Origin: a virus
Lineage: Duplodnaviria; Heunggongvirae; Uroviricota; Caudoviricetes
DNA: 14,328 nucleotides
Reading direction: 5' to 3' (one strand)
IMG/VR virus record: IMGVR_UViG_2778261450_000002
Location: 1-14,328 of that record
How positions within the stretch are numbered: position 1 is the first letter of the stretch; the number at the start of each line of letters is the position of its first letter. Made by a program: the position numbers and the translations under genes. The notes beneath the pieces were generated by a model that saw only the letters and a program-made list of their open reading frames with translations, was not told where the DNA came from and ran no database searches. Below are positions 1 through 14,328 of the stretch, one piece after another.

Positions 1-1248
1 ATGGCACTGAATATTCCATTCAGAAATGCGTACTATCGTTTTGCATCCAGTTACTCATTTCTCTTTTTTATTTCCTGGTCGCTGTGGTGGTCGTTATACG
101 CTATTTGGCTGAAAGGACATCTAGGGTTGACAGGGACGGAATTAGGTACACTTTATTCGGTCAACCAGTTTACCAGCATTCTATTTATGATGTTCTACGG
201 CATCGTTCAGGATAAACTCGGTCTGAAGAAACCGCTCATCTGGTGTATGAGTTTCATCCTGGTCTTGACCGGACCGTTTATGATTTACGTTTATGAACCG
301 TTACTGCAAAGCAATTTTTCTGTAGGTCTAATTCTGGGGGCGCTATTTTTTGGCTTGGGGTATCTGGCGGGATGCGGTTTGCTTGATAGCTTCACCGAAA
401 AAATGGCGCGAAATTTTCATTTCGAATATGGAACAGCGCGCGCCTGGGGATCTTTTGGCTATGCTATTGGCGCGTTCTTTGCCGGCATATTTTTTAGTAT
501 CAGTCCCCATATCAACTTCTGGTTGGTCTCGCTATTTGGCGCTGTATTTATGATGATCAACATGCGTTTTAAAGATAAGGATCACCAGTGCGTAGCGGCA
601 GATGCGGGAGGGGTAAAAAAAGAGGATTTTATCGCAGTTTTCAAGGATCGAAACTTCTGGGTTTTCGTCATATTTATTGTGGGGACGTGGTCTTTCTATA
701 ACATTTTTGATCAACAACTTTTTCCTGTCTTTTATGCAGGTTTATTCGAATCACACGATGTAGGAACGCGCCTGTATGGTTATCTCAACTCATTCCAGGT
801 GGTACTCGAAGCGCTGTGCATGGCGATTATTCCTTTCTTTGTGAATCGGGTAGGGCCAAAAAATGCATTACTTATCGGAGTTGTGATTATGGCGTTGCGT
901 ATCCTTTCCTGCGCGCTGTTCGTTAACCCCTGGATTATTTCATTAGTGAAGTTGTTACATGCCATTGAGGTTCCACTTTGTGTCATATCCGTCTTCAAAT
1001 ACAGCGTGGCAAACTTTGATAAGCGCCTGTCGTCGACGATCTTTCTGATTGGTTTTCAAATTGCCAGTTCGCTTGGGATTGTGCTGCTTTCAACGCCGAC
1101 TGGGATACTCTTTGACCACGCAGGCTACCAGACAGTTTTCTTCGCAATTTCGGGTATTGTCTGCCTGATGTTGCTATTTGGCATTTTCTTCTTGAGTAAA
1201 AAACGCGAGCAAATAGTTATGGAAACGCCTGTACCTTCAGCAATATAG
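1..1248 (+). CDS. cscB: LacY-family oligosaccharide:H+ symporter (MFS), probably sucrose permease; flanks the prophage
   Basis: 415-aa ORF from ATG at 1 to TAG at 1246-1248. Hydrophobic throughout, with LacY-like blocks (GIVQDKLGLKKPLIW, FEYGTARAWGSFGYAIG, PKNALLIGVVIMALRIL, EVPLCVISVFKYSV). Length and N-terminus match my recollection of E. coli CscB; the symbol is from memory and not verified. Confidence 0.8.
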   Translation: MALNIPFRNAYYRFASSYSFLFFISWSLWWSLYAIWLKGHLGLTGTELGTLYSVNQFTSILFMMFYGIVQDKLGLKKPLIWCMSFILVLTGPFMIYVYEPLLQSNFSVGLILGALFFGLGYLAGCGLLDSFTEKMARNFHFEYGTARAWGSFGYAIGAFFAGIFFSISPHINFWLVSLFGAVFMMINMRFKDKDHQCVAADAGGVKKEDFIAVFKDRNFWVFVIFIVGTWSFYNIFDQQLFPVFYAGLFESHDVGTRLYGYLNSFQVVLEALCMAIIPFFVNRVGPKNALLIGVVIMALRILSCALFVNPWIISLVKLLHAIEVPLCVISVFKYSVANFDKRLSSTIFLIGFQIASSLGIVLLSTPTGILFDHAGYQTVFFAISGIVCLMLLFGIFFLSKKREQIVMETPVPSAI

Positions 1249-1256
1249 ACGTAAAC

Positions 1257-1301
1257 TTTTTCCGGTTGTTGTCGATAGCTCTATATCCCTCAACCGGAAA
1301 A
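1257..1301. repeat. 11-bp perfect inverted repeat (TTTTCCGGTTG / CAACCGGAAAA) with 22-nt spacer, directly after the permease stop
   Basis: Arms at 1258-1268 and 1291-1301 are exact reverse complements. The loop is long for an intrinsic terminator and there is no clean T-run, so the function is unclear (terminator, REP-like element or junction scar). Confidence 0.35.
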
Positions 1302-1775
1302 TAATAATAGTAAAATGCTTAGCCCTGCTAATAATCGCCTAATCCAAACGCCTCATTCATGTTCTGGTACAGTCGCTCAAATGTACTTCAGATGCGCGGT
1401 TCGCTGATTTCCAGGACATTGTCGTCATTCAGTGACCTGTCCCGTGTATCACGGTCCTGCGAATTCATCAAGGAATGCATTGCGGAGTGAAGTATCGAGT
1501 CACGCCATATTTCGCTATCAGGATTCTGTGTGATGGTTACATCGCCCGGCTCAGGGCTGTTTAGTCATCAGCGCTTTCTGACAGTGCTGAGATTTCAACC
1601 TGTTGCAGTAAAAATGAGTAGATATAAGGCAAGTGTGCTGCCAAACCCATCTTTTACGGGGTGAAGGTAGATTTCGTTTGAAGGGTATCTGGTGCCCTGC
1701 AGACATCTACTTGGCGCGGCAGGGGATTGATTGGAATGGTGTTTTTTAGATGTGAAAAATATTTTACCCGCTATT

Positions 1776-1976
1776 TTACCCATTGGCGCGGCTTAAGAGC
1801 TTATTTTTGAATTCACAATGGTCACGATATAACCATCTTGCTCGCCCGTGGATAACTTTGGCTTTTGGCAGGTCGCCGGACTTAATCCGGTCATAGATGA
1901 AGGTCTTACCGAAGCCAGTATCAGCCATGATGAATTTCAAATCAACCAGTGAATCAGGTTGTAGTTCGTGTTGCAT
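1776..1976 (-). CDS. AlpA/Xis-family excisionase-like HTH DNA-binding protein
   Basis: 66 aa, ATG at 1976-1974 preceded by a GGAGA Shine-Dalgarno. Sequence (…LKFIMADTGFGKTFIYDRIKSGDLPKAKVIHGRARWLYRDHCEF…) fits the AlpA/excisionase winged-helix pattern. No integrase ORF follows it. Confidence 0.6.
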   Translation of the reverse strand: MQHELQPDSLVDLKFIMADTGFGKTFIYDRIKSGDLPKAKVIHGRARWLYRDHCEFKNKLLSRANG

Positions 1977-2021
1977 GAGTGCTATCTCCGAATATGGAAT
2001 CGAACCTGCAAATCAGGCAAG

Positions 2022-2042
2022 AAAAAGCCGCATTGATGCGGC
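2022..2042 (-). terminator. intrinsic terminator for leftward transcription, upstream of the xis-like gene
   Basis: Minus strand reads GCCGCA-TCAA-TGCGGC followed by TTTTT. Confidence 0.5.
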
Positions 2043-2111
2043 GATGGTAGGTCTGGATATCATTGAGCAATGAACAGGCCTCATCGAGAGTGAGGCGGTG
2101 TTATTTCATGG

Positions 2112-2456
2112 TTAGTCCTTGCGTAGCTCGCTGATTCTTCTGTAAGTCTCTGGTGCTTTGTTTCCGTGTATCTTCATTTCAGACTTCAACAGAGCAACGA
2201 GGGAATCCCATTCGTTGAGGATTCCTTTGAATGCCGGAACGCGCTTTGCAACCTTGTTGAATGAATCTCTGATTTCTGGAATCTGCTCAACAAGTGCAAC
2301 GCATCGTCTGAAATCGGCTGCGTCATGGGGAGCGCCGAAGTGATGACCATAGATATTCTTTTTCAGTCCACATGCGATTGAGGCAAGAGTTGCGCTACTG
2401 ATGCCGACATCGCCAGTCGATTGCCATTTCAAAACCTTCATAGCCAAATCTGACAT
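2112..2456 (-). CDS. hypothetical phage early-left protein (114 aa)
   Basis: ORF with ATG at 2456-2454 preceded by GGAGA (MSDLAMKVLKW…). The longer ORF-track start at 2483 would lie inside the terminator hairpin and has no RBS. Confidence 0.55.
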   Translation of the reverse strand: MSDLAMKVLKWQSTGDVGISSATLASIACGLKKNIYGHHFGAPHDAADFRRCVALVEQIPEIRDSFNKVAKRVPAFKGILNEWDSLVALLKSEMKIHGNKAPETYRRISELRKD

Positions 2457-2467
2457 TTCTTGTCTCC

Positions 2468-2492
2468 AATAAAAAACCGCCATCAGGCGGCT
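2468..2492 (-). terminator. intrinsic terminator with the upstream gene's stop codon in the loop
   Basis: Minus strand: AGCCGCC-TGAT-GGCGGTT then TTTTATT. The TGA in the loop is the stop of the 55-aa ORF 2483..2650. Confidence 0.5.
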
Positions 2493-2650
2493 TGGTGTTC
2501 TTTCAGTTCTTCAATTCGAATATTGGTTACTTCTGCATGTGCTATCTGCGCCCATATCATCCAGTGGTCATAGCAGTCATTGATGTTCTCTGCTTCGATA
2601 ACTCTGTTGAATGGTTCTCCATTCCATTCACCTGTGACTCGGAAGTGCAT
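2483..2650 (-). CDS. small hypothetical protein (55 aa)
   Basis: ATG at 2650-2648 with GGAG upstream, hand-translated as MHFRVTGEWNGEPFNRVIEAENINDCYDHWMIWAQIAHAEVTNIRIEELKEHQAA. Below the 60-aa ORF-track cutoff; flanked by terminators on both sides. Confidence 0.4.
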   Translation of the reverse strand: MHFRVTGEWNGEPFNRVIEAENINDCYDHWMIWAQIAHAEVTNIRIEELKEHQAA

Positions 2651-2660
2651 TTATCATCTC

Positions 2661-2687
2661 CAAAAACAAAACTCGCCGTAGCGAGTT
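2661..2687 (-). terminator. intrinsic terminator for leftward transcription
   Basis: Minus strand: AACTCGC-TACG-GCGAGTT followed by TTGTTTTTG. Confidence 0.5.
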
Positions 2688-2749
2688 CAGATAAAAGAAA
2701 TCCCCGCGAGTGCGAGGATTGTCATTCACCTTTAACGGCAAGTTGCAGG

Positions 2750-3361
2750 TTAGCCACGGTTAACCTCCAGTTGTGGTGCTGCCTCAATAGCAGCCCTGTA
2801 ACCAGCAGCATGACCGCGAAAGTTAGCAATCTCTGATAGCCACGCTTTAATCATGGCCTGAGTTGGTTCCTTCGGCACCATAACCCAACCATCCGGAATT
2901 ACCGGAGAGTTGCCACCGGGAATATTTTCCGGAATATTTTGTTGTGCGTTTTGTGGTTGTTCGGATTTACCCTGAAGCATGGCGGCGCGGCAGGCGTTCC
3001 AGCCAGCTGTTCGCCCAAGCGCGTAAACTTCAGATGGCTCAAGATAATCAATGTCATGCCCGTCCTCATCGTCGTTCTCAGGTAATGCAGCAGGTACTAC
3101 CGGTACTGGCGGAGCGGCGTAGACTTCAATAATCCCATTGTCAATAGGCCATTCTCCATCCTTGAGATAGTCACTTGTGCCGTCAACTTGCTGTTCAGCA
3201 ATGTGGAATGCACCAACTGGTTCTGCCTCAAGCGAGGCCAGTGCAATTCGTGCCAGTTCCCTAAGATTTTCGCTATATGGTGAAGTATTATCACGATTGA
3301 TTATGTGATTAGCTGTATCTATGAGAACTTGCTTTTGTTCTTCTCTGTTCATAGTGGTCAT
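2750..3361 (-). CDS. hypothetical phage protein (203 aa, acidic/Pro-rich central region)
   Basis: Long ORF with ATG start, 1 nt downstream of the stop of the preceding gene in the leftward operon. No family recognised. Confidence 0.65.
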   Translation of the reverse strand: MTTMNREEQKQVLIDTANHIINRDNTSPYSENLRELARIALASLEAEPVGAFHIAEQQVDGTSDYLKDGEWPIDNGIIEVYAAPPVPVVPAALPENDDEDGHDIDYLEPSEVYALGRTAGWNACRAAMLQGKSEQPQNAQQNIPENIPGGNSPVIPDGWVMVPKEPTQAMIKAWLSEIANFRGHAAGYRAAIEAAPQLEVNRG

Positions 3362-3362
3362 A

Positions 3363-3662
3363 TCACATCACCCTGAAGCCGTTGCATTTACGTAAGAAAT
3401 CGCAGATATAGCCCTTCATTTTTTCGTGCCAATCCCGATCATTCCCATTGCACCAACCATCAGGTGGAGTCCAGTTTTCTATCAGAGCAGCCATTTTCTT
3501 TGCTTTCGCCGGAGTAGCTGTTGCGGTATCGCAGTAATGACGAGTGTCAACAAACTTATCCATGCCATCGATATCAAGTACGCAAAACCATGTGTGATTC
3601 GGCATTTCAACAGATGGTATTTGTTGCCCACGTCGACGTTTATCAATAAGACATACAGTCAT
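3363..3662 (-). CDS. hypothetical phage protein (99 aa, Cys-containing)
   Basis: Its ATG (3662-3660) overlaps the TGA of the upstream reading frame (ATGA at 3659-3662), indicating translational coupling. Confidence 0.6.
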   Translation of the reverse strand: MTVCLIDKRRRGQQIPSVEMPNHTWFCVLDIDGMDKFVDTRHYCDTATATPAKAKKMAALIENWTPPDGWCNGNDRDWHEKMKGYICDFLRKCNGFRVM

Positions 3663-4202
3663 GGTTCCACCTTCTCTATTTGCTTAAGACCGTCTCTCAC
3701 TGCATTAAGTACGCGTTCCAGATACTGGTATTTCGGGTTTGGTATCGTTGGCCAGTTGGCATACCACGGATCATCACCAAAGAGATTCAGTAGTTTGTTA
3801 CCGACGCCGAAACAGCAGCAGCTTTCTTTTACGTCATCGGTGTTTTCCGCCTCGTCCCACATTTCGCGAGCCAGTACGGCGTCGATTTCTCTCTCTTCGT
3901 AACTTTATGATTTCTGACTTCACGAAAAGCAGATTTGCATCGTTGTCATCGTCGACCGTGCTTAGCAGTTGAGGGTCGAAATTGTCGATTAGATAATCGT
4001 TGCTAACTCGCTTAATGAACGTCTGCACATCATCACCGCCCATAGCAAACCAAGCCGCTGTCCACGCTTTTCCGTAGCAGGTGATGGTGATTCTTCCCTT
4101 TCCATGTTCGTAGTTTTCAATCATCACTCGAATCGGATCTAGTCGCTCTGCACCGGTTATAACGAATGACAACACATCAATCTTTTCAACCGTTACACTC
4201 AC
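3659..4202 (-). pseudogene. phage gene split into two overlapping frames (3834..4202 and 3659..3862) by a frameshift at a (TC)4T/(AG)4 tract
   Basis: The upstream frame starts with GTG overlapping the previous stop (GTGA at 4199-4202) and ends in a low-complexity tail (LRRERNRRRTGSRNVGRGGKHR). The downstream frame is open from 3904 and reads as ordinary protein (YEEREIDAVLAREMWDEAENTDDVKE…). Both frames are open only across 3834-3904, and the dinucleotide tract 3888-3896 lies inside that interval. A +2 or -1 nt change there would give one ORF of about 180 aa. Confidence 0.45.
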
Positions 4203-4630
4203 TGGTTGCCTCCTTTGCGAAGCTCAGCGGCGAAGGCTACTGCGTGATCATGATGTTCAAGTGTGTATGCGCACTCAGCAAACATCTCCACGCCCTGCGC
4301 TCGTACTTCAGCCAGGAAAGCGTCGGTGGCTGGGGTTTCAGTAACATCATCTTCCCATTCGCTAAACTCCTCACGACAAAAGTCATTAAATTCCTTCTCA
4401 GATTGCTTAAGTGAGGTATTTTCAGCAGCCATCTTCGCGCATTTAGCCTCAAGGTTATCAATCGTGATTCCAACAGAACGACACTCCCGCAACGCCGTTT
4501 CCAGTTTTGATTCAAGTTCACCGAACTTACGGACAAGATATTCAGCGTTTGTTTCGTTGACCTTTAAATCTCGTGGGATGCATTTGCCTTTCAGAAATCC
4601 ATCCATCTCAATTAGTGACATTTGTTTCAT
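4199..4630 (-). CDS. hypothetical phage protein (143 aa, predicted coiled-coil, acidic C-terminus)
   Basis: ATG at 4630-4628 overlaps the upstream TGA (ATGA). Heptad-like charged sequence (…[43 protein letters not shown]…). Confidence 0.6.
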
Positions 4631-4809
4631 TTCTTCCCACTCCGGCACATCGCATTCAGATATTTGTTTTGATTTACTGACGGAAAAGAATTTCTCTTAA
4701 GTAATTCCTCTCTCGATGGCATTGGCTTTACGCGTTGGCGAATAATCATTTCTGCAGGAAGAATGCCGGGGTTGTATGCAAGTCCTCTCATGGTAAATTC
4801 CTCAGTCAT
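4627..4809 (-). CDS. small hypothetical protein (60 aa)
   Basis: ATG at 4809-4807 lies 2 nt before the TGA of the upstream gene (short overlap). Reads [60 protein letters not shown]. Confidence 0.45.
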
Positions 4810-5098
4810 TACTGATAGCGCCATAGCGTGAGCGGTAATTACGCAGGCGCGGGTCGATATATTCAGGGAAGTGGGTATATGTGGCTTTACGGAATGGTCG
4901 GATTGATGTCTGGTAAATTCGCTCTCGTTCTTCTTTCTCTGCAAGCCATATACAGTGGCGAAATTCCTTTTCCTCTTTCGTTTCCTGTGGTAGCGACATT
5001 ATCCGATCGTAGTTTTTTCTGAATTTATCCAGCACCTCCGATACGGATTTGCCGGAACAGCGGCGCGGGTCATCCGCACCATACAAAGGCGCTGGCAT
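4802..5098 (-). CDS. hypothetical phage protein (98 aa, basic)
   Basis: ATG at 5098-5096 with AGGAGA 5 nt upstream. No family recognised. Confidence 0.6.
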
Positions 5099-5114
5099 GT
5101 TTTTCTCCTGTTTA

Positions 5115-5663
5115 TTATTTAGCTAACTTTTTCCAGATCGCTGAAACGTATTTGGCTTGGTGGATGGCATCATCAAGCGCGTTGTGGCGAGTTCCTTTGA
5201 ATGGCATATCTCGCTTAGGGTCGAATCCTATTACCTTTCCAAGCTCGACGATTGTTCTTACGTCGCGGTCATTCCACCACTGCCACGGAACTGGCTGCCC
5301 TGTCAGCGAATAACTGTTTCGGAGAATAACGCAGTCAAATGATGCTCCATTCCCCCAAACCTGAACGAATTTGTGGTTAGCGTTCTTTATGATGAATTCA
5401 GATAACCATGAAAGAGCCGTTGAAAGCTCCTGAGTGTTGCTGGTTAGCGATTTTCTGGCTTCTTCACTCTGTTCCAGCCACCATAAAATCGTTGAAGCGT
5501 CAGGACGCGCCCGATATCGCATTGATGACTCAAGCGAGATATTTACCGAGAACTCTTCTCCTGTTTCTCCGGTATTCGGTTCAAAGAATACCGCCCCAAT
5601 AGAAATAACTGGCGCGTATGGCCCGTTGCCCATTGTTTCAAGGTCAACCATCAAGTGATTCAT
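5115..5663 (-). CDS. DEDDh-family 3'-5' exonuclease (DnaQ-like fold)
   Basis: 182 aa with Exo I (MVDLETMG), Exo II (WGNGASFDCVIL) and Exo III (HNALDDAIHQAKY) motifs. AAGGA RBS upstream of the ATG. Confidence 0.8.
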   Translation of the reverse strand: MNHLMVDLETMGNGPYAPVISIGAVFFEPNTGETGEEFSVNISLESSMRYRARPDASTILWWLEQSEEARKSLTSNTQELSTALSWLSEFIIKNANHKFVQVWGNGASFDCVILRNSYSLTGQPVPWQWWNDRDVRTIVELGKVIGFDPKRDMPFKGTRHNALDDAIHQAKYVSAIWKKLAK

Positions 5664-5671
5664 GTAAGTCC

Positions 5672-6187
5672 TTAAATTGCGTGAATAGCGTGACGAGGGA
5701 AAGGGAGAGTTACTGGTGCAAAGGGGATATCGTCGTCAAAATCCATAGGTGGTTCGCTGTGATTTACCTGCTTCTGAGGCTGCTGTTTTTGTTGCTGACC
5801 GTTATTTCGCTGAGGTGAAGACTGTTCATTGCCTCCTTGCTTGCCACCAAGCATTTGCATGGTTCCACCAACGCCCACGATAACTTCGGTAGTGAACCGA
5901 TCCTGTCCACTTTGATCCTGCCATTTTCTTGTCCGCAATTTGCCTTCAAGATAAACCTCAGAGCCTTTTCGCAGATATTCGCTGGCAATTTCTGCCAGTT
6001 TCCCGCTCATTACCACGCGGTGCCACTCCGTCTGCTCCTTTTGCTCTCCAGTTTGCTTATCACGCCATTGTTCTGACGTAGCAACTGTAAGGTTTGCAAA
6101 TGCCGTTCCTGATGGTGAATATCTGATTTCTGGATCATGCCCAAGGCGACCAATAATGATCACCTTATTTACGCCTCTGCTTGCCAT
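5672..6187 (-). CDS. ssb: single-stranded DNA-binding protein with a 15-residue extension beyond the DDDIPF tail
   Basis: N-terminal OB-fold region is near-identical in pattern to E. coli SSB (MASRGVNKV…TEWHRVV…[15 protein letters not shown]…[12 protein letters not shown]…TTEV), followed by a Gly/Gln-rich linker and [10 protein letters not shown]. The ORF then continues [15 protein letters not shown] before TAA. Confidence 0.9.
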
Positions 6188-6895
6188 TTATGCCGCCTGT
6201 TTTAGTTCGTTAACTCTGATGTTCATTACCTGAACGCATTTAGCCTGCGCCTCCTCGTTGCCAGCCATTAATTGCCAGTCACGCTGATAACGCTCGATGA
6301 GTTTTTCCTTGTCAGTTTCTGTCGATGCATAATCGCTGAAGTCTTTCAGGATTTGTTCGCAGTCAACCGATGGAGATTTCTGGTTGGTATTTTCTGGTGA
6401 TGGTTGATTGCCAGATGCTGGCATTGCCCATCCCGGCAGCGATGGAGGGGACCAGTAAAATCCTGTTCCATCTTTCAGTTTTGCCCTGTGCCATCCCTGC
6501 TTTTTATCGAGAGATGTTTGTGCGAAACCTTCCTCAAGGTTATACAGATACCGACCGATTCCCCACTGAACGGCAGCGCGCTTCATTGCACCGGAACGAC
6601 CACCTTTGACGGCTTCTACCTGCGTGTTTTCAGCAGCATCCCATTTGGTTACCCATTCGGAATCAATCTTTATTGATATGCCGCATTCAACGCCGCCGTT
6701 GTTGGGAATATCGCGGTATTCATTGCGCCATCCTGCTTTGCCACAAACATCGTCCAGGCGTTTCATGATTGCCCGGTTCGTTACATAAGCCAGCACCATA
6801 GCCCACACTTTGCCATCGCGTGTTTTACCGCTTTGCTGTATTCGCCATTCGATATCTTCAGGGCTGAATGGCTCATCGAATTTATTCAAATCCAT
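6188..6895 (-). CDS. Rad52-like single-strand annealing protein (Sak-type phage recombinase)
   Basis: 235 aa with the Rad52/Sak pattern (…GKVWAMVLAYVTNRAIMKRLDDVCGKAGWRNEY…WDAAENTQVEAVKGGRSGAMKRAAVQWGIGRYLY…). Sits immediately upstream of ssb. Confidence 0.75.
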   Translation of the reverse strand: MDLNKFDEPFSPEDIEWRIQQSGKTRDGKVWAMVLAYVTNRAIMKRLDDVCGKAGWRNEYRDIPNNGGVECGISIKIDSEWVTKWDAAENTQVEAVKGGRSGAMKRAAVQWGIGRYLYNLEEGFAQTSLDKKQGWHRAKLKDGTGFYWSPPSLPGWAMPASGNQPSPENTNQKSPSVDCEQILKDFSDYASTETDKEKLIERYQRDWQLMAGNEEAQAKCVQVMNIRVNELKQAA

Positions 6896-6994
6896 AATTC
6901 ACCTCAGAATGGACATGGCCCAAGGAAATAACGCTGATTTAATACTTCGACTCGGGACAAATTAAGGCATACCCGCATTCCTTCGCGGTCACCA

Positions 6995-7153
6995 TTATGG
7001 CGATACCAGAGAGCTTTCTGCGTGTACATGCGTCTCTGTAACTTGCTCTCCTTCACTGTGGTTGCAAGTGACATGAATATCTCCTTCGTTACCGATTAAT
7101 TCTTTCATCTGACGAATGAATTCTTCGTCTGACCAGTTATCTGTAAAATTCAT
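6995..7153 (-). CDS. small hypothetical protein (52 aa) in the kil-like position
   Basis: ATG at 7153-7151 overlaps the TGA of the cIII-like ORF (ATGA). Reads MNFTDNWSDEEFIRQMKELIGNEGDIHVTCNHSEGEQVTETHVHAESSLVSP. Function not recognised. Confidence 0.4.
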   Translation of the reverse strand: MNFTDNWSDEEFIRQMKELIGNEGDIHVTCNHSEGEQVTETHVHAESSLVSP

Positions 7154-7320
7154 GGACGGCCTTGTTGTTTCAAAATATCCCAAAGCTTTTCGAGCAAACT
7201 TTTCATTCTTGGTTGTTTAAAGTCTGCTCCGGTTAAAATATTTTTTCGTGAATGCTGTACCGATAAAATCGGGTTGAAAGGGCGAACCGATGCCGCCCCT
7301 GCAATAGCGAACTGTTGCAT
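7150..7320 (-). CDS. cIII: CIII-like protein (putative FtsH inhibitor that stabilises CII)
   Basis: 56 aa, hand-translated as MQQFAIAGAASVRPFNPILSVQHSRKNILTGADFKQPRMKSLLEKLWDILKQQGRP. Resembles lambda CIII (MQYAIAGW… and …LIDILNQPG). AAGGAG RBS 6 nt upstream. Below the ORF-track length cutoff. Confidence 0.55.
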   Translation of the reverse strand: MQQFAIAGAASVRPFNPILSVQHSRKNILTGADFKQPRMKSLLEKLWDILKQQGRP

Positions 7321-7395
7321 AGGATGCTCCTTCTGTTTGATTGCATAACGAAAACGCCTCTCGTGAAGCGTTATTGGTATGCGGTAAAGCCGCGC

Positions 7396-7707
7396 TTAGG
7401 CGGCTGATGTTTCTTCTTTCAGGCTTTCGAGATATTTACGTGGGTCGTCGTAACATTGGCATTCGCTGTACCAATCCACCCAGCGATCAGTAAGCCCCAT
7501 CTCTGATAAATCTTCATCGGTAAGGCTCTCATCCCACATCTCAAGGCCGTTAGCATTGCAGTAATCAGGCTTGATGTTGTTGTCATACTGAAAGGCGTCA
7601 TAATCAGCCAGTGCGTCCATCAGGCGAACACCCTCTTCAACACTTGCCACTTCTACAATGAACGGCTTCATAGGTACTTGCGGGATATGCCAGACACGTA
7701 ATTTCAT
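7396..7707 (-). CDS. acidic hypothetical protein (103 aa, about 22% Asp+Glu)
   Basis: ATG at 7707-7705 with GGAGG 5 nt upstream, directly after a terminator. The longer ORF-track start at 7761 would lie inside that terminator. Confidence 0.6.
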   Translation of the reverse strand: MKLRVWHIPQVPMKPFIVEVASVEEGVRLMDALADYDAFQYDNNIKPDYCNANGLEMWDESLTDEDLSEMGLTDRWVDWYSECQCYDDPRKYLESLKEETSAA

Positions 7708-7719
7708 ATATCCTCCGTC

Positions 7720-7748
7720 AAAAAAATTGCCCTCACATTGGAGGGCAA
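7720..7748 (-). terminator. intrinsic terminator in the leftward operon (tL1-like position)
   Basis: Minus strand: TTGCCCTC-CAATGT-GAGGGCAA followed by TTTTTTT. Confidence 0.6.
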
Positions 7749-7808
7749 AGAAGATTTCCAATAATCAGAACAAGTCGGCTCCTGTTTAGTTACGAGCGAC
7801 ATTGCTCC

Positions 7809-7836
7809 GTGTATTCACTCGTTGGAATGAATACAC
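7809..7836. other. 9-bp perfect inverted repeat (GTGTATTCA / TGAATACAC) with 10-nt loop, downstream of ral
   Basis: Exact reverse-complement arms at 7809-7817 and 7828-7836. Could be an RNA stem-loop or a protein-binding palindrome; no T-run follows. Confidence 0.3.
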
Positions 7837-7863
7837 AGTGCAGTGTTTATTCTGTTGTTTATG

Positions 7864-7894
7864 CCAAAAATAAAGGCCACCATCAGGCAGCCTT
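7864..7894 (-). terminator. intrinsic terminator with the ral stop codon in the loop
   Basis: Minus strand: AAGGCTGCC-TGAT-GGTGGCCTT (9 bp including two G-U pairs) then TATTTTTGG. Same architecture as the terminator at 2468-2492. Confidence 0.45.
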
Positions 7895-8083
7895 GTTGTT
7901 CTGTTTACCAAGTTCTCTGGCAATCATTGCCGTCGTTCGTATTGCCCATTTATCGACATATTTCCCATCCTCCATTACAGGGAACATTTCTTCAGGCTTA
8001 ACCATGCATTCCGATTGAAGCTTGCATCCATTGCATCGCTTGAATTGTCCACACCATTGATTTTTATCAATAGTCGTAGTCAT
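7883..8083 (-). CDS. ral: Ral-like restriction alleviation protein (66 aa)
   Basis: Sits immediately left of N as ral does in lambda. Has a Cys cluster (C-x5-C-x2-C-x5-C). The lambda Ral match (MTTTIDKNQW…) is recalled from memory, not aligned. Confidence 0.6.
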   Translation of the reverse strand: MTTTIDKNQWCGQFKRCNGCKLQSECMVKPEEMFPVMEDGKYVDKWAIRTTAMIARELGKQNNKAA

Positions 8084-8153
8084 AAGGATAGTCCTGGTAT
8101 TGTTCCATCACATCCTGCGGATGCTCTTCGAACTCTTCAAATTCTTCTTCCAT
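8067..8153 (-). CDS. 28-aa highly acidic micro-ORF between N and ral
   Basis: ATG at 8153-8151 preceded by GAGGTG, hand-translated as MEEEFEEFEEHPQDVMEQYQDYPYDYDY. Overlaps the ral start by 17 nt. Too short to call with confidence. Confidence 0.3.
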   Translation of the reverse strand: MEEEFEEFEEHPQDVMEQYQDYPYDYDY

Positions 8154-8161
8154 ATATCACC

Positions 8162-8488
8162 TCAAATAAGTGGTTTGCTGCCTAATTTCATTTTCTGGCG
8201 ACCAACACAAGTCAACCCCATTTCACTACGTGGCTTGCTGTACCATGTGCGCTGATTCTTGCGTTCAATACGTTGCAGGTTGCTTTCAATCTGTTCGTGG
8301 TATTCAGCCAGCACTGTAAGGTCTATCGGATTCAGTGCGCTTTCTACTCGTGATTTCGGTTTGCGATTCAGCGAGAGAATAGGGCGGTTAACTGGTTTTG
8401 CGCTTACCCCAACCAACAGGGGATTTGCTGCTTTCCATTGAGCCTGTTTCTCTGCGCGACGTTCGCGGCGGCGTGTTTGTGCATCCAT
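8162..8488 (-). CDS. N: antitermination protein N (lambda type)
   Basis: 108 aa from the ATG at 8488-8486: MDAQTRRRERRAEKQAQWKAANPLLVGVSAKPVNRPILSLNRKPKSRV…, including the arginine-rich RNA-binding motif. The ORF-track start at 8578 would be a spurious 30-aa extension. Confidence 0.9.
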   Translation of the reverse strand: MDAQTRRRERRAEKQAQWKAANPLLVGVSAKPVNRPILSLNRKPKSRVESALNPIDLTVLAEYHEQIESNLQRIERKNQRTWYSKPRSEMGLTCVGRQKMKLGSKPLI

Positions 8489-8598
8489 CTGGATTCTCCT
8501 GTCAGTTAGCTTTGAGTAACGCGCCGTGATGCTTATCTCCACGGTTGCTGTCTTGCAGCTGCATTTCGCGCTACTCAAAGCCTTCTGCTTTGAATGCT

Positions 8599-8629
8599 GC
8601 CCTTCTTCAGGGCTTAATTTTTAAGAGCA
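8599..8629 (-). promoter_or_regulatory. nutL (boxA TGCTCTTA and boxB GCCCTGAAGAAGGGC)
   Basis: Minus strand reads GATGCTCTTAAAAATTAAGCCCTGAAGAAGGGCAGCATTCAAAGCAGAAGG, matching the lambda nutL arrangement. Lies between pL and N. Confidence 0.8.
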
Positions 8630-8660
8630 TCACCTTCATGGTGGTCAGTGCGTCCTGCTG

Positions 8661-8741
8661 ATGGCTTAAAATTACAAGAAAGATTGTATGTTGTAAACAA
8701 GAAATATTGTAATAAGAGGCGTAAAAAACAAACTCCATTGT
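8661..8741 (-). promoter_or_regulatory. pL promoter with three 434-type operators (OL)
   Basis: Three 14-bp ACAA-N6-TTGT sites: ACAAGAAAGATTGT (8674-8687), ACAAGAAATATTGT (8697-8710), ACAAACTCCATTGT (8728-8741). The leftward transcript start region CATCAGCAGGACGCACTGACCAC follows on the minus strand. Confidence 0.8.
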
Positions 8742-8791
8742 TTTTAAACGGAAAATAGTTTGTTTTTTGGTTATAGAAATCGAGGTGAGGA

Positions 8792-10144
<1,353 letters not shown>

Positions 10145-10152
10145 GACATTCC

Positions 10153-10184
10153 CGCTCTTATACATCCCCGCCCTGAAAAAGGGC
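10153..10184 (+). promoter_or_regulatory. nutR (boxA CGCTCTTA and boxB GCCCTGAAAAAGGGC)
   Basis: Exact boxA/boxB-like motifs immediately downstream of cro. Confidence 0.8.
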
Positions 10185-10261
10185 ATTACCAGAGAAAAAA
10201 TCTCTATGGTTTTGCGTTTCTTTGCGAAGCCAACTCTATCTAATCATTAAGGAAATTATGT

Positions 10262-10543
10262 ATGGGTACTATTGCAACTAAAAGCAAGAAAGCGGCTCGC
10301 ATCGAGTCAGCCTTGCTGAACAAACTGGCACTGATGGGGCAGAAGACATTCGCTCGCGCGATGGGGGTTCCGGAATACCAGGTAAGCCGATGGAAGAATG
10401 GTTTCTTCTCGCAGGTAAGCATGATGCTGGCTGTTCTGGAATACGGAATCGAAGACGATGAAATGGCTGAACTGACTAAGCGGCTTGCCGATTACCTGAC
10501 AAAAGAAAAAGCCCCGAAGAACGGCGAATTCTTCGAGGCCTGA
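10262..10543 (+). CDS. cII: CII-like transcriptional activator
   Basis: 93 aa. The block …ARIESALLNKLALMGQKTFARAMGVPEYQVSRWKNGFFSQVSMMLAVLEYGIEDDEMAEL… parallels lambda CII (…LRIESALLNKIAMLG…QISRWKRDWIPKFSMLLAVLEWGVVDDDMARL…). Confidence 0.85.
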   Translation: MGTIATKSKKAARIESALLNKLALMGQKTFARAMGVPEYQVSRWKNGFFSQVSMMLAVLEYGIEDDEMAELTKRLADYLTKEKAPKNGEFFEA

Positions 10544-10577
10544 TGTAGAAAGACTGGATCAATCCACAGGAGTAATT

Positions 10578-10739
10578 ATGACAAAACGTCGTAAGAAATA
10601 CCAGGAAAAAGAAGAGATTCGACACCCTGATTCACCTGAGGGATTAGTGGTAGCCGCAGCAAATAACAGGGCGTTCGCAGAGCGCCTTGTTGGTGTTTAC
10701 AGACTAGCCAAAGCAGGAGTGAAACATGGGCGTCGTTAA
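10578..10739 (+). CDS. small basic hypothetical protein (53 aa) between cII and the O-like gene
   Basis: ATG at 10578 with AGGAG 5 nt upstream, hand-translated as [53 protein letters not shown]. Its 3' end overlaps the O-like start by 14 nt. Below the ORF-track cutoff. Confidence 0.35.
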   Translation: MTKRRKKYQEKEEIRHPDSPEGLVVAAANNRAFAERLVGVYRLAKAGVKHGRR

Positions 10740-11556
10740 GTTAGCTGATTACAGGCCTCAACTGGAGGTCGTGGAGCATCGCGTGGCAGAACTCGAAGAT
10801 GGCTACACTCGGACTGCAAACACACTGTTAGAAGCCGCCATGCTTTCTGGACTTACTCTACATCAGTTACTGATTGTTATGGCTGTGTGGCGCAAGACAT
10901 ACGGTTACAACAAAAAAATAGATTGGATCGGAAACGAACAGTTCGCTGAACTCACTGGCATGGCACCAACCAAATGTTCTACCGCCAAAAACGAGCTTAT
11001 CAGAATGGGAGTTCTCATTCAGGTGGGGCGTCAAGTTGGTATGAATACAAACATTTCCGAGTGGAAAACGAAAGTTAACGGATTCGGTAAAACATTTACC
11101 AATTCGGTAAAACAAACCTTCACCAAATCGGTAAAAAGCAATTTACCGAATCAGTCAAACACAAAAGACAATATACAAAAGACAATAAATACAAATACCC
11201 CCTTACCCCCTAACGGGGGCGGCGATGGGCAGGTTAAACCTGAACGTCGCAAGGCAGAACGAATCGACTATGAATCCTTCCTGAACGCCTACAACACCGA
11301 AGTCGGTGACAGACTTCCACATGCTGTTGCGGTCAACGAGAAACGCAAACGTCGCCTGAAGAAAATCATCCCGCAACTGAAAACGCCAAACGTGGACGGT
11401 TTCAGAGCGTATGTCAGGGCGTTTGTGCATCAGGCCAAGCCATTTTACTTCGGAGACAACGACACGGGATGGACGGCAGATTTTGATTACCTGCTGAGAG
11501 AAGACTCGTTAACGGGAGTTCGGGAAGGGAAGTTTGCAGACAGGGGGATTGCATGA
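10726..11556 (+). CDS. replication initiator, lambda O-like N-terminal domain
   Basis: 276 aa. N-terminal region (…[17 protein letters not shown]…[25 protein letters not shown]…NELIRMGVL…NISEW) parallels lambda O. The gene contains the iteron array. Confidence 0.85.
11082..11200. repeat. replication origin: iteron array followed by an AT-rich tract, inside the O-like gene
   Basis: Direct repeats of TTCGGTAAAACA at 11083-11094 and 11103-11114, a degenerate copy at 11127-11137 and an inverted copy TTACCGAA at 11143-11150. Then ACAAAAGACAATA x2 and an A/T-rich run (11161-11197). Same layout as ori-lambda. Confidence 0.65.
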
Positions 11557-12929
11557 GACAGGATATCGAAGCGAGCGTTATCGGTGGCCTGCTGATTGGT
11601 GGATTAACACCAACCGCCAGTGACGTTCTGGCAACGCTGGAGCCGGAAGCGTTTTCAATTCCGCTCTACCGGAAAGCCTTCGAGGTTATCCGCAAGCAGG
11701 CGAGAAACAGAAACCTAATCGATGCGCTGATGGTTGCCGAGGCGTGCGGAGAGGAGCATTTCACGTCAATCCTGATGACCAGCAAAAACTGCCCGAGTGC
11801 CGCAAACCTGAAGGGATATGCCGGAATGGTCGCGGATAACTATCACCGCCGTCTGGTGCTGGAAATCATGGATGAAATGCGTGAACCAATTCAGAGCGGA
11901 ACCATCGACGCATCGAGTCAGGCGATGGATGAGCTTGTAAAGCGTCTTTCATCCATCAGAAAGCCCCGTGACGAGGTTAAACCTGTACGGTTAGGGGAAA
12001 TCATTACTGACTACACTGACACGCTTGACAGGCGTCTGAGGAACGGAGAAGAGTCCGATACCCTGAAGACCGGAATCGAAGAACTTGACGCTATCACCGG
12101 AGGGATGAACGCGGAAGACCTGGTGATTATCGCCGCTCGTCCTGGTATGGGGAAAACCGAACTGGCGCTGAAGATTGCCGAAGGCGTTGCAAGCCGCGTT
12201 ATTCCTGGTTCTGACGTCCGGCGCGGAGTATTGATTTTCTCGATGGAAATGAGCGCATTGCAGATTGCAGAGCGAAGCATTGCCAACGCCGGGAGGATGT
12301 CGGTTAGCGTGCTGCGAAATCCTGCATCGATGGATGACGAAGGCTGGGCGCGCGTTGCTAACGGCATGAGTCAGCTTGCAGATTTGGATGTATGGGTAGT
12401 CGATGCCTCGCGGTTATCTGTCGAAGAAATACGCTCAATCGCAGAACGGCACAAACAGGAAAATCCAAACCTGTCACTCATCATGGCGGATTATCTTGGC
12501 CTGATTGAGAAGCCGAAAGCAGACCGCAACGACCTCGCAATTGCTCACATCTCCGGAAGCCTGAAGGCGATGGCGAAAGACCTGAAAACACCGGTTATTT
12601 CCCTGAGTCAGCTTTCACGCGATGTTGAGAAGCGACCAAACAAACGCCCGACAAACGCAGATTTGCGTGATTCAGGAAGCATTGAACAGGACGCAGACTC
12701 AATCATCATGCTCTATCGGGAAGCGGTATATGACGAGAACAGTAGCGCCGCGCCATTTGCTGAAATCATCGTGACGAAAAACCGTTTTGGCTCACTTGGT
12801 ACGGTTTACCAGCGGTTCTGCAACGGACACTTTGTTGCATGTGACCAGGATGAAGCCAGACAGATTTGCACAACATCAAATGCACCCGCTGCACGTGGCA
12901 GACGATATGCACAAGGGGCTGACGTATGA
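11553..12929 (+). CDS. DnaB-family replicative DNA helicase (phage-encoded, P22 gene 12 type)
   Basis: 458 aa. ATG overlaps the O-like TGA (ATGA). Walker A (ARPGMGKT), an Asp-rich Walker B region (…[10 protein letters not shown]…) and DnaB-like N-terminal domain. Confidence 0.9.
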
Positions 12930-13006
12930 CCATCTACATCACTGAGCTTGTAACAGGCCTGCTGGTAATCGCAGGCCTTTTTATTTGGGGGAGAGGGAAG
13001 TCATGA
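12926..13006 (+). CDS. 26-aa hydrophobic micro-ORF coupled between the helicase and ninB
   Basis: ATG overlaps the helicase TGA (ATGA at 12926-12929) and its TGA overlaps the ninB ATG (ATGA at 13003-13006). Reads [26 protein letters not shown], one predicted transmembrane helix. May instead be chance reading across the terminator. Confidence 0.25.
12955..12986 (+). terminator. intrinsic terminator (tR2-like position)
   Basis: AGGCCTGC-TGGTAATC-GCAGGCCT followed by TTTTATTTGG. Confidence 0.5.
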
Positions 13007-13443
13007 AAAAACTAACCTTTGAAATTCGATCTCCGGCACATCAGCAAAACGCTATTCACGCAGTACAGCAAATCCTTCCAGACCCAACCAAGCCAATCGT
13101 AGTGATCATTCAGGAGCGCAACCGCAGCTTAGACCAGAATCGGAAGCTTTGGGCTTGCCTTGGTGACGTCTCTCGTCAGGTTGAATGGCATGGGCGTTGG
13201 CTGGATGCAGAAAGCTGGAAGTGTGTGTTTACCGCAGCATTAAAGCAGCAGGATGTTGTTCCTAACCTTGCCGGGAATGGCTTTGTGGTAATAGGCCAGT
13301 CAACCAGCAGGATGCGTGTAGGCGAATTTGCGGAGCTATTAGAGCTTATACAGGCATTCGGTACAGAGCGTGGCGTTAAGTGGTCAGACGAAGCGCGACT
13401 GGCTCTCGAATGGAAAGCGCGATGGGGAGATCGGGCTGCATGA
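13003..13443 (+). CDS. ninB: NinB (Orf-family recombination mediator)
   Basis: 146 aa from the ATG at 13003 (GAGAGGGAAG RBS): [34 protein letters not shown]…, lambda NinB-like as recalled. Confidence 0.9.
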   Translation: MKKLTFEIRSPAHQQNAIHAVQQILPDPTKPIVVIIQERNRSLDQNRKLWACLGDVSRQVEWHGRWLDAESWKCVFTAALKQQDVVPNLAGNGFVVIGQSTSRMRVGEFAELLELIQAFGTERGVKWSDEARLALEWKARWGDRAA

Positions 13444-13967
13444 CTATCAAATCAAATACTCCAGCACACGACAAGGACTGCTGGCAAACGCCGCTTTGGC
13501 TTTTTGATGCACTGGATATTGAGTTTGGATTCTGGCTGGATTCGGCAGCGAGCGACAAAAATGCTCTGTGTGCTCACTGGCTAACTGAGGCCGACGACGC
13601 GCTCAATTCTGAGTGGGTAAGCCACGGTGCAATCTGGAATAACCCACCGTACAGCAATATCAGGCCGTGGGTGGAAAAAGCCGCTGAGCAGTGCATACAA
13701 CAGCGACAGACGGTAGTTATGCTTGTGCCAGAGGATATGTCAGTCGGATGGTTCAGCAAGGCTCTGGAGAGTGTTGACGAAGTTCGCATCATCACTGATG
13801 GACGGATTAATTTTATCGAACCATCGACGGGGCTGGAGAAGAAGGGAAACAGCAAAGGCTCAATGCTGCTGATTTGGCGACCGTTCATCAGTCCTCGACG
13901 GATGTTTACTACCGTATCCAAAGCGGCATTGATGGCGATCGGGCAGGGCGTCAGGAGGGCGGCATGA
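13440..13967 (+). CDS. phage Dam-like DNA N6-adenine methyltransferase (orphan)
   Basis: 175 aa. ATG overlaps the ninB TGA (ATGA). Catalytic NPPY motif (…[10 protein letters not shown]…) and the conserved WQTP…LF…LD N-terminal block. No restriction endonuclease partner in the window. Confidence 0.85.
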
Positions 13968-14140
13968 GACGACAGCGACGAAGTATCACCGACATAATCT
14001 GCGAAAACTGCAAATACCTTCCAACGAAACGCTCCAGAAATAAACGCAAGCCAATCCCAAAAGAATCTGACGTAAAAACCTTCAACTACACGACTCACCT
14101 GTGGGATATCCGGTGGCTAAGACATCGTGCGAGGAAATGA
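13964..14140 (+). CDS. ninE: NinE-like protein (58 aa)
   Basis: ATG overlaps the methyltransferase TGA (ATGA). Reads [58 protein letters not shown], lambda NinE-like as recalled. Confidence 0.85.
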
Positions 14141-14142
14141 CA

Positions 14143-14328
14143 ATGGATTATTCACAGTTAAGTGATTTTGAAATTAACTTAAAAGTCGCGCATATCGTGC
14201 TAGGAAAAAACAATTACGACTGGGATCCAGAAAAGAAAGAAGTTTACTTGGCTGGAATTGATGGTGGTGAGTTTTTGCCTTGCGGATATTTCGACCCATG
14301 TAATATGGTGTCACGAACGGTGCAATAG
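14143..14328 (+). CDS. hypothetical nin-region protein (61 aa)
   Basis: ATG at 14143 with GAGGAA 6 nt upstream (an alternative ATG at 14137 overlaps the ninE stop). Reads MDYSQLSDFEINLKVAHIVLGKNNYDWDPEKKEVYLAGIDGGEFLPCGYFDPCNMVSRTVQ and stops at 14326-14328. Confidence 0.5.
   Translation: MDYSQLSDFEINLKVAHIVLGKNNYDWDPEKKEVYLAGIDGGEFLPCGYFDPCNMVSRTVQ

Follow-up and report, generated by a model that had tools for sequence, protein, structure and literature searches.

The C-terminal tip of SSB, the protein that binds single-stranded DNA, is among the best-studied protein-interaction hubs in bacteria, and according to the textbook rule its final phenylalanine must be the free C-terminus. We investigated an SSB that departs from this rule, encoded in the IMG/VR virus record IMGVR_UViG_2778261450_000002 (Caudoviricetes); positions 1 to 14,328 of this record were analyzed, and this whole stretch of 14,328 nucleotides is called the window hereafter. 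The ssb gene of the window (5672..6187, minus strand) encodes a tip that is identical to the tips of chromosomal SSBs and then 15 further residues. We found that a large natural family of phage SSBs keeps this perfect tip and yet puts a peptide after it, and that a mobile endonuclease gene, putatively of the HNH type, inserts exactly at the junction between the two. The proteins were already present in databases under the generic name "single-stranded DNA-binding protein"; what is new here is the SSB subfamily with its conserved post-tip peptide, together with the mobile endonuclease that splits it at the junction.

[quoted passage not shown] The window SSB resembles the homotetrameric SSBs (PF00436; E. 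coli SSB, PDB 1EQQ and 4MZ9) in its OB fold, its disordered Gly/Gln-rich linker, and the identical sequence of its tip. Unlike in these canonical proteins, the Phe of the tip is not C-terminal, and fifteen conserved residues lie beyond it. The gene, which was taken from the list of open reading frames (ORFs) and translated, has 171 codons and a TAA stop, and its product starts MASRGVNKV. PF00436 covers residues 6-105 (5873..6172, minus strand; DNA binding and tetramerization) with E = 2e-38 and 131 bits against a cutoff of 26. Next come the linker (about residues 113-144; 5756..5851, minus strand), which aligns without consensus at many positions and is hypervariable between alleles, and the acidic, host-type tip (SSB-Ct, residues 145-156; 5720..5755, minus strand), which is internal here and whose last codon, that of Phe156, occupies 5720-5722 on the minus strand. 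The extension (residues 157-171; 5675..5719, minus strand) contains a phi-x-[L/M]-x-aromatic-P motif and then an aliphatic C-terminus. In a full-length phmmer search, the best PDB matches were the enterobacterial SSBs 7f2n and E. coli 1eqq (E about 1e-66), with the alignment ending at the tip, and a PHROGs profile search assigned the protein to phrog_44. An earlier note on this DNA, made from its letters, had described an SSB whose OB-fold region is very close to that of E. coli, with a Gly/Gln-rich linker and an acidic tip, and had placed 15 residues between the Phe and a TAA at 5672-5674; the translation, the PF00436 match, and the PDB matches bear out this description.

The closest described relatives are the lambdoid SSB-1 proteins (Sf6 gp27 and ES18 gp48; PMC12315714), which belong to the same family and are likewise encoded after an annealing-protein gene and before nuclease or anti-RecBCD genes. 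The SSBs of Sf6 and ES18 are tip-terminated because an endonuclease gene (gene 26 in Sf6) follows the tip, unlike those of the window and of phages ECP1, mEp235, HK75, and epsilon34, which are uninterrupted and extended. In the passages searched of that survey of lambdoid recombination modules, the tail is not mentioned. Another phage SSB encoded beside an annealing protein is that of HK620 (HkaK, "SSB-2"), whose C-terminal six residues, NDYPPF, are required to stimulate its Sak4 annealase (PMC5928155). It is a precedent for phage SSB tails as partner-specific docking sites, and extended SSBs likewise occur beside Sak4-like AAA_24 genes; it differs in that it is not of the PF00436 type and its tip is terminal. 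Literature searches for PVTLPFPRH, the core of the tail, found nothing, nor did searches for this feature under Sf6 gene 26 or SSB extensions.

Distribution and conservation of the extension

The residues behind the tip were compared among the 120 best-matching SSB clusters of a protein search, which came from prophages of five genera (E. coli, several Klebsiella species, Citrobacter, Salmonella, and Enterobacter); the extended family is abundant in clinically relevant hosts. In about 111 of these 120 clusters, the tip was followed by a tail with the consensus [AS]P[VIL]TLPFPRH[ATV][IVM][HY][AV][IL]. The replacements among related clusters were conservative (A/S, V/I/L, A/T/V, H/Y, and I/L), and the linker ahead of the tail was hypervariable. 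An identical tail is found in the cultured phages ECP1, mEp235, HK75, and epsilon34, even though at the DNA level the last three share only about 78% identity with the window in the ssb core, compared with about 98% for ECP1. ECP1 encodes the same 171-aa protein as the window, and its DNA and that of the unannotated HZ41, which was compared as DNA without translation, match up to the stop codon. Moreover, the region was matched in 406 of 5426 complete E. coli genomes (about 7%), where the gene is annotated plainly as ssb.

For a control, SSBs of other gammaproteobacterial genomes were found via the OB domain alone; these were mostly chromosomal SSBs, not close prophage relatives, and 74 of the 76 SSBs among the matches listed end exactly at DDDIPF. 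Thus, the extension is unusual for SSBs in general, and it is the normal state of this phage SSB family. The earlier note had proposed a comparison with the ssb genes of related prophages and held that its reading would fail if close homologues all carried the same extension with an ordinary interaction profile; the close phage relatives do carry it as their normal state, so that the first half of that statement holds.

At two of the control loci, the SSB belonged to a prophage and had a tail that was diverged but agreed in length and pattern. In a Mixta sp. prophage (L154), whose ssb adjoins a Sak4-like ATPase gene, DDDIPF is followed by AYIGLQYPSHAIHSI, and in a Motiliproteus sp. prophage (L175) it is followed by ARLGMQWRGGELII; no ORF of the gp26 endonuclease type adjoins ssb in either. 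A search of 50%-identity representatives, in which many matches were frameshifted or fused ORFs and which was useful only for a few further variants, added the tails APIGLQYPALLSVM (P0212), MGLGYDTARSAIYAL (P0264), AQVPYLAGI, and APVPFY. The features shared by the tails are A or another residue, an aliphatic residue, any residue, L or M, any residue, and an aromatic residue, after which Pro is frequent and the last residue is aliphatic. The core is VTLPFP in the family of the window and IGLQYP or LGMQW in distant relatives, and the C-terminal ends include HAI, HVI, HAL, HSI, and LII. The window SSB has all the traits of this extended-tip subfamily, namely a tail of 14-15 residues after D(D/E)(I/V)PF, the motif, the aliphatic end, and purifying selection.

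Selection was estimated with the Nei-Gojobori ratio of nonsynonymous to synonymous differences (pN/pS) on 13 diverse alleles: that of the window, four from phages, and eight from prophage or metagenome loci. The ratio was 0.158 for the OB fold, 0.586 for the last 12 codons of the linker, and 0.028 for the tip; it was 0.103 for the 15-codon extension and 0.035 for its core PVTLPFPRH. Distant alleles differ at 3-7 synonymous positions in the 45 bases of the extension with almost no replacements; it is the peptide that is conserved. The extension is under purifying selection, and the internal tip is still under very strong constraint in the extended alleles. A programmed frameshift at CCC-TTT-G, by which the protein would terminate close to the Phe, was considered and rejected, because the frame gives no X-XXY-YYZ heptamer and the codons vary synonymously between alleles (ATA CCC, ATC CCC, ATT CCG, and ATA CCA).

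The mobile endonuclease gene at the tip/tail junction

About 450 bp interrupt the sequence that matches the window in Sf6, IME10, N7, CurroJimenez_Bas106, and Huey. The SSB of Sf6 (gp27, 157 aa) ends with EPPMNFDDSDIPF and a stop (tip NFDDSDIPF), and gene 26 starts nine bases later. The product of this gene (gp26, 159 aa) ends in the old extension residues, using the same DNA as the extension of the window, so that 14 of the 15 extension residues form the C-terminus of gp26; the Sf6 database record already notes, unexplained, 14 residues in common with an "E. coli SSB." An alignment of the window, ECP1, Sf6, and CurroJimenez showed that the insert consists of a stop, a ribosome-binding site (RBS), and an ORF without its own last 14 codons, and that it replaces the Ala codon at the Phe156/Ala157 junction (5717..5722, minus strand). 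The window carries the uninterrupted allele. This junction as the insertion site of a mobile, putatively HNH-type gene is the key context of the extension, and it is invisible from the window sequence alone. In total, 19 distinct HNH-bearing combinations of SSB and endonuclease were found. Sf6 gp26 matched phrog_2340, "endonuclease" (E = 2.6e-47), with the profile covering residues 1-143 only; CxxC and HH...WH motifs were visible, and no Pfam HNH match was obtained at E <= 1.

Among 80 viral contigs, which were sampled via a neighboring annealing-protein gene that is at least 97% identical, 57 had the extended SSB, 22 had the split form (about 28%), and 1 had no recognizable ssb. Such a presence/absence polymorphism at one precise site among modules that are 97-100% identical is as for homing endonuclease genes. 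The insert of Sf6 gp26 resembles the free-standing HNH homing genes of phages in this site-specific polymorphism, in the altered adjoining target, and in the existence of decayed copies. Unlike them, the cassette of the gp26 type lies inside the 3' end of a coding sequence: a mobile gene supplies the stop of its host gene and borrows the last 14 codons and the stop of that gene for itself. The polymorphism also gives matched phage pairs with and without the tail, such as Sf6 versus ECP1 and CurroJimenez versus the type of the window.

The endonuclease-linked SSBs end at free, slightly altered tips, some with an extra residue (DDSDIPF, DDQDIPF, or DDDQDIPF) and some with DDEIPF in place of DDDIPF. 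Altered tips look like what is expected of cleavage-resistant targets, and they point to the tip-coding DNA as the putative target of the endonuclease. Members P0003 and P0019 of the endonuclease family also lie directly after ssb genes ending in DDQDIPF, so the family appears to be specialized toward the conserved DNA that encodes the tip. For the endonuclease homologues that terminate in AA, a location at the 3' end of the annealing-protein gene (whose product terminates in KQAA) was considered too, and it was rejected because P0003 and P0019 lie directly after ssb genes. Altered tips can be seen at L002 (Sf6, 1990-2050), L297 (1950-2010), and L298 (1950-2010). At L298, a 153-residue protein (1531-1992) with no Pfam SSB match on record ends with NEPPMNFDDDQDIPF and a stop, between an ERF gene and an endonuclease gene of the gp26 family; it seems that a different ssDNA-binding fold acquired the same tip and the same mobile gene.

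Several comparisons indicate that the tail belongs to ssb and that the tail of the endonuclease was borrowed from it, not the reverse. The phrog_2340 profile stops at residue 143, and endonuclease homologues elsewhere end soon after KP(I/S)Y with unrelated tails; closer gp26 homologues in other ssb contexts end differently from gp26, too. The endonucleases P0021 and P0022 are only 47-48% identical to gp26 and share the tail, whose variants HAI, YAI, and HAL mirror the ssb alleles. In addition, extended SSBs occur in prophages in which no such endonuclease ORF adjoins ssb. We therefore infer this direction of borrowing from sequence comparison.

A third state of the junction was found in the ES18-type Salmonella phage 103203_sal5 (L006), in which the tip is followed by TAATAA and an unrelated AT-rich HNH gene, with no remnant of the tail. 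This is a second, unrelated endonuclease gene at the same place; it is annotated HNH, and we presume that it belongs to the HNH_3 family. In this record (1064-2095), either a frameshift or a sequencing error disrupts the ssb frame near codon 26, and the recorded coding sequence starts later.

Rearranged forms of the split locus were observed as well. P0011, P0014, P0024, and P0060 are rare in-frame chimeras. In two of them, the C-terminal half of the endonuclease follows the SSB OB domain (in P0014 the two meet at a shared IVG), and in the other two, the endonuclease is fused with the downstream exonuclease; all appear to be deletion or decay products. The extended SSBs P0116, P0138, P0176, and P0184 have NFDDEIPF tips, as seen with the second endonuclease lineage, fused to the tail, and in P0116 the linker, too, is that of endonuclease-bearing alleles (QQRQQSQQHGN...). 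These alleles are either sites where the endonuclease gene was lost by recombination or original recipient alleles. In the viral contigs L082, L089, L110, and L118, the tail-coding DNA lies behind short or frameshifted ORFs that are neither an intact ssb nor the endonuclease gene, and these are probably further rearranged or degraded copies of the locus. In one E. coli chromosome (NZ_AP027957.1, 1920672-1920716), the match is confined to the extension's 45 bases (97.8% identity), and nothing is annotated there; this match could be the 3' end of an unannotated endonuclease gene or an orphan remnant.

Possible roles of the extension and rival explanations

We somewhat favor the reading that a large temperate-phage SSB family, the "SSB-1" of Enterobacterales lambdoid recombination modules, has in the extension a genuine C-terminal module maintained by selection, which would mask the tip and add a new docking site. 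The descriptive and evolutionary conclusions are well supported, and we hold them with high confidence; the functional mechanism is put forward tentatively. According to this mechanism, the extended SSB would coat ssDNA and would bind ExoI, chi, PriA, RecQ, and proteins like them poorly or not at all, because these partners dock the terminal Phe with its free carboxylate. The tail peptide would then supply a different docking site as a second linear motif. A neighboring phage protein would be a less likely partner of the peptide than the SSB tetramer itself or a conserved host factor, because the neighboring phage genes vary while the peptide is nearly constant. The strong conservation of the internal tip suggests that the tip still does something; it may contact the OB fold in cis, serve partners that tolerate an internal tip, or be unmasked. 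The earlier note had suggested that the extension masks the tip, perhaps uncoupling the phage SSB from host partners or redirecting it to phage partners, and this idea remains reasonable given the published requirement for a free Phe, whereas its premise of a lost stop did not survive.

The variability of the neighbors is considerable. Upstream of the extended SSB we found genes of the Rad52/22 type (the window, L209, L210, L214, and L216), ERF genes (L212 and L213), or AAA_24, Sak4-like genes (L207, L215, and L154); downstream we found the exonuclease (35), abc2 (44), or an unknown gene of 94 residues. The adjacent annealing protein is thus disfavored as the partner of the tail. The similarity to ECP1 and Sf6 ends at the ssb stop codon, so that a module boundary lies directly after the stop, and this end of the similarity between mosaic relatives indicates that the tail travels with ssb and not with any neighbor. 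A structure of the whole protein was modeled with AF2 and a 43-sequence family alignment. The OB fold was recovered, at modest confidence, with its strands and helix (pLDDT 61-76 for the blocks of residues 21-100, lower N-terminally), and residues 106-171, that is linker, tip, and tail, were disordered (pLDDT 25-31); the monomer model gave no sign of docking of the tail on the OB fold.

Some points weigh against a selected module with masking and docking functions. Phages whose SSB has no tail are viable, both Sf6 with its endonuclease and the ES18-type phages with a canonical stop, which means that the tail is dispensable for growth or plaque formation, at least in the laboratory. The peptide of 15 residues is far smaller than GFP, and the loss of host-partner binding is extrapolated from the GFP fusion. 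Among the 13 alleles, pS was 0.45 in the extension versus 0.73-0.81 in the rest of the gene, and thus some DNA-level homogenization (by recombination or homing arms) or constraint probably adds to the conservation. These alleles were also retrieved with an extension-containing query, which brings a mild ascertainment bias. Finally, the survey describes the SSB-1 proteins of Sf6 and ES18 as experimentally unstudied (PMC12315714).

Among the rival explanations, an artefact or recent accident, in which a mutation or a misassembly confined to this sequence removed the stop after the Phe, has practically no chance of being right. Chromosomal SSBs do almost always end at IPF (the 74 of 76 among the matches listed), but the identical extension is present in many independent phages, hundreds of prophages, and metagenomic contigs, with synonymous variation. 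The earlier note had offered either a lost stop or an assembly or mutational artefact; both are contradicted by the independently sequenced phages and hundreds of prophages, by the conservation of amino acids across synonymous changes, and by the diverged relatives in other genera. It is very improbable that the tail is a neutral scar. In this scenario, a tip-terminated ssb followed by the endonuclease gene would be ancestral; a deletion would have joined the final 14 endonuclease codons directly to the Phe codon, and the tail would be a functionless remnant that spread by recombination. The identity of 14 of the 15 residues with the C-terminus of Sf6 gp26, the existence of deletion fusions among ssb, endonuclease, and exonuclease genes (P0011, P0014, P0024, and P0060), and the extended allele P0116 with the linker and NFDDEIPF tip of endonuclease-linked types speak for such a scar. 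A scar does not account for a pN/pS of 0.10 in the tail (core 0.035) beside 0.59 in the adjacent linker, for diverged extensions in prophages where no such endonuclease ORF adjoins ssb, or for the extended form being the majority (57/80). Moreover, the tail lies beyond the end of the endonuclease profile, it is replaced by unrelated tails in homologues from other ssb contexts, and two endonuclease lineages that are 47-48% identical share it. We also consider it improbable that conservation acts mainly on the 45 bases as a homing arm or recognition region, as mosaic boundary sequence, or for translational coupling, with the peptide irrelevant. [quoted passage not shown] However, distant alleles carry the 3-7 synonymous changes with almost no replacements, those replacements are conservative, and the distant versions of the tail keep the residue pattern and not the DNA.

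Two other explanations assign a different function to the peptide. The tail might be a motif for the beta clamp (DnaN), by which the phage SSB would bring the host clamp to recombination or replication intermediates or would sequester it, and we judge this quite unlikely. The clamp-binding motif is Q-phi-x-[L/M]-x-[F/L], in which Gln is important but not essential and Trp weakens binding (PMC11139829). PVTLPF fits five of the six positions (2-6), and the distant tails keep phi-x-[L/M]-x-aromatic, so that VTLPF, IGLQY, and LGMQW all fit positions 2-5. Position 6, however, agrees with [F/L] in VTLPF only, being Y or W in the distant versions, and position 1 is P, Y, or R, never Q, so that the full motif is absent. 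It is unlikely, too, that the tail is a C-terminal degron or processing signal, which would make the protein a ClpXP substrate of the MuA type (C-motif 2), with its amount held down or timed, or a pro-SSB that is clipped after Phe156 to the canonical tip. The MuA degron ends in RRKKAI (PMC12723719), the tail ends in PRHAIHAI, and in every variant the last residue is I, L, or M, preceded by one that is small or aliphatic; unmasking by such a route would also explain the conserved internal tip (pN/pS 0.028). The likeness of HAI to KAI nevertheless rests on two or three residues, with the basic cluster of MuA only partly matched; the invariant PVTLPFPRH core is left unexplained, and no known protease site lies at F/A.

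Returning to the selected module with masking and docking, a broader idea is that a widespread family of temperate-phage SSBs buried the universal tip and added a linear motif of its own, by which its members may have become uncoupled from host tip-dependent proteins, or stopped titrating them, and may recruit another conserved partner, for defense evasion or sliding-clamp capture; the endonuclease gene would then be a natural switch between the masked and the free-tip state in phages that are otherwise nearly identical. This is possible but doubtful. In a 2026 preprint, the activation of DRT10 is linked to host SbcB and to an SSB-like phage protein whose tip is FDDDIPF. For the evasion variant, the tail would serve to avoid defense systems that monitor phage SSBs or the axis of SSB tip and ExoI (SbcB). 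The family is in any case a natural experiment on what an internal tip can still do and on the insulation or redirection of phage SSBs in the host interactome, with a possible bearing on SSB-sensing defense systems and on recombineering with pairs of phage annealing proteins and SSBs.

Neighboring genes in the window

The recombination module of the window has the order Rad52-like gene, ssb, exonuclease gene, and abc2, and the same order occurs in the early-left operons of Sf6, ECP1, mEp235, epsilon34, and HK75. The gene for the Rad52/22-family single-strand annealing protein (6188..6895, minus strand; PF04098, E = 5e-26) is directly upstream, and its stop abuts the ssb start codon. The next gene after ssb encodes a Rv2179c-like (DnaQ-type) 3'-5' exonuclease (5115..5663, minus strand; PF16473, E = 5e-73), and the anti-RecBCD gene abc2 (4802..5098, minus strand; PF11043, E = 2.9e-61) is the last of the module. 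The stop of ssb, the Shine-Dalgarno sequence, and the start of the exonuclease gene are packed into 5661..5674 (minus strand): the AAGGA at 5669-5673 overlaps the TAA at 5672-5674 and ends five bases ahead of the ATG at 5661-5663. The statement of the earlier note that the ssb stop sits inside the RBS of the next gene was therefore correct.

The window opens with a chromosomal gene for a LacY-family sugar/proton symporter (1-1248, plus strand; PF01306, E = 1e-193), after which come the early-left genes of the prophage (the region of window positions 1249-2750). No integrase-sized ORF was found between the LacY-family gene and the early-left genes, and no tRNA in the window. This may reflect a truncated prophage end or an integrase gene located elsewhere. 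The rest of the window is a lambdoid prophage with N, an S24-peptidase (LexA/cI-type) repressor (9193-9825, minus strand), an O-like initiator adjoined by a DnaB-like replicative helicase (11553-12929, plus strand), and a Dam-type adenine methyltransferase (13380-13967, plus strand), all of which are ordinary lambdoid content.

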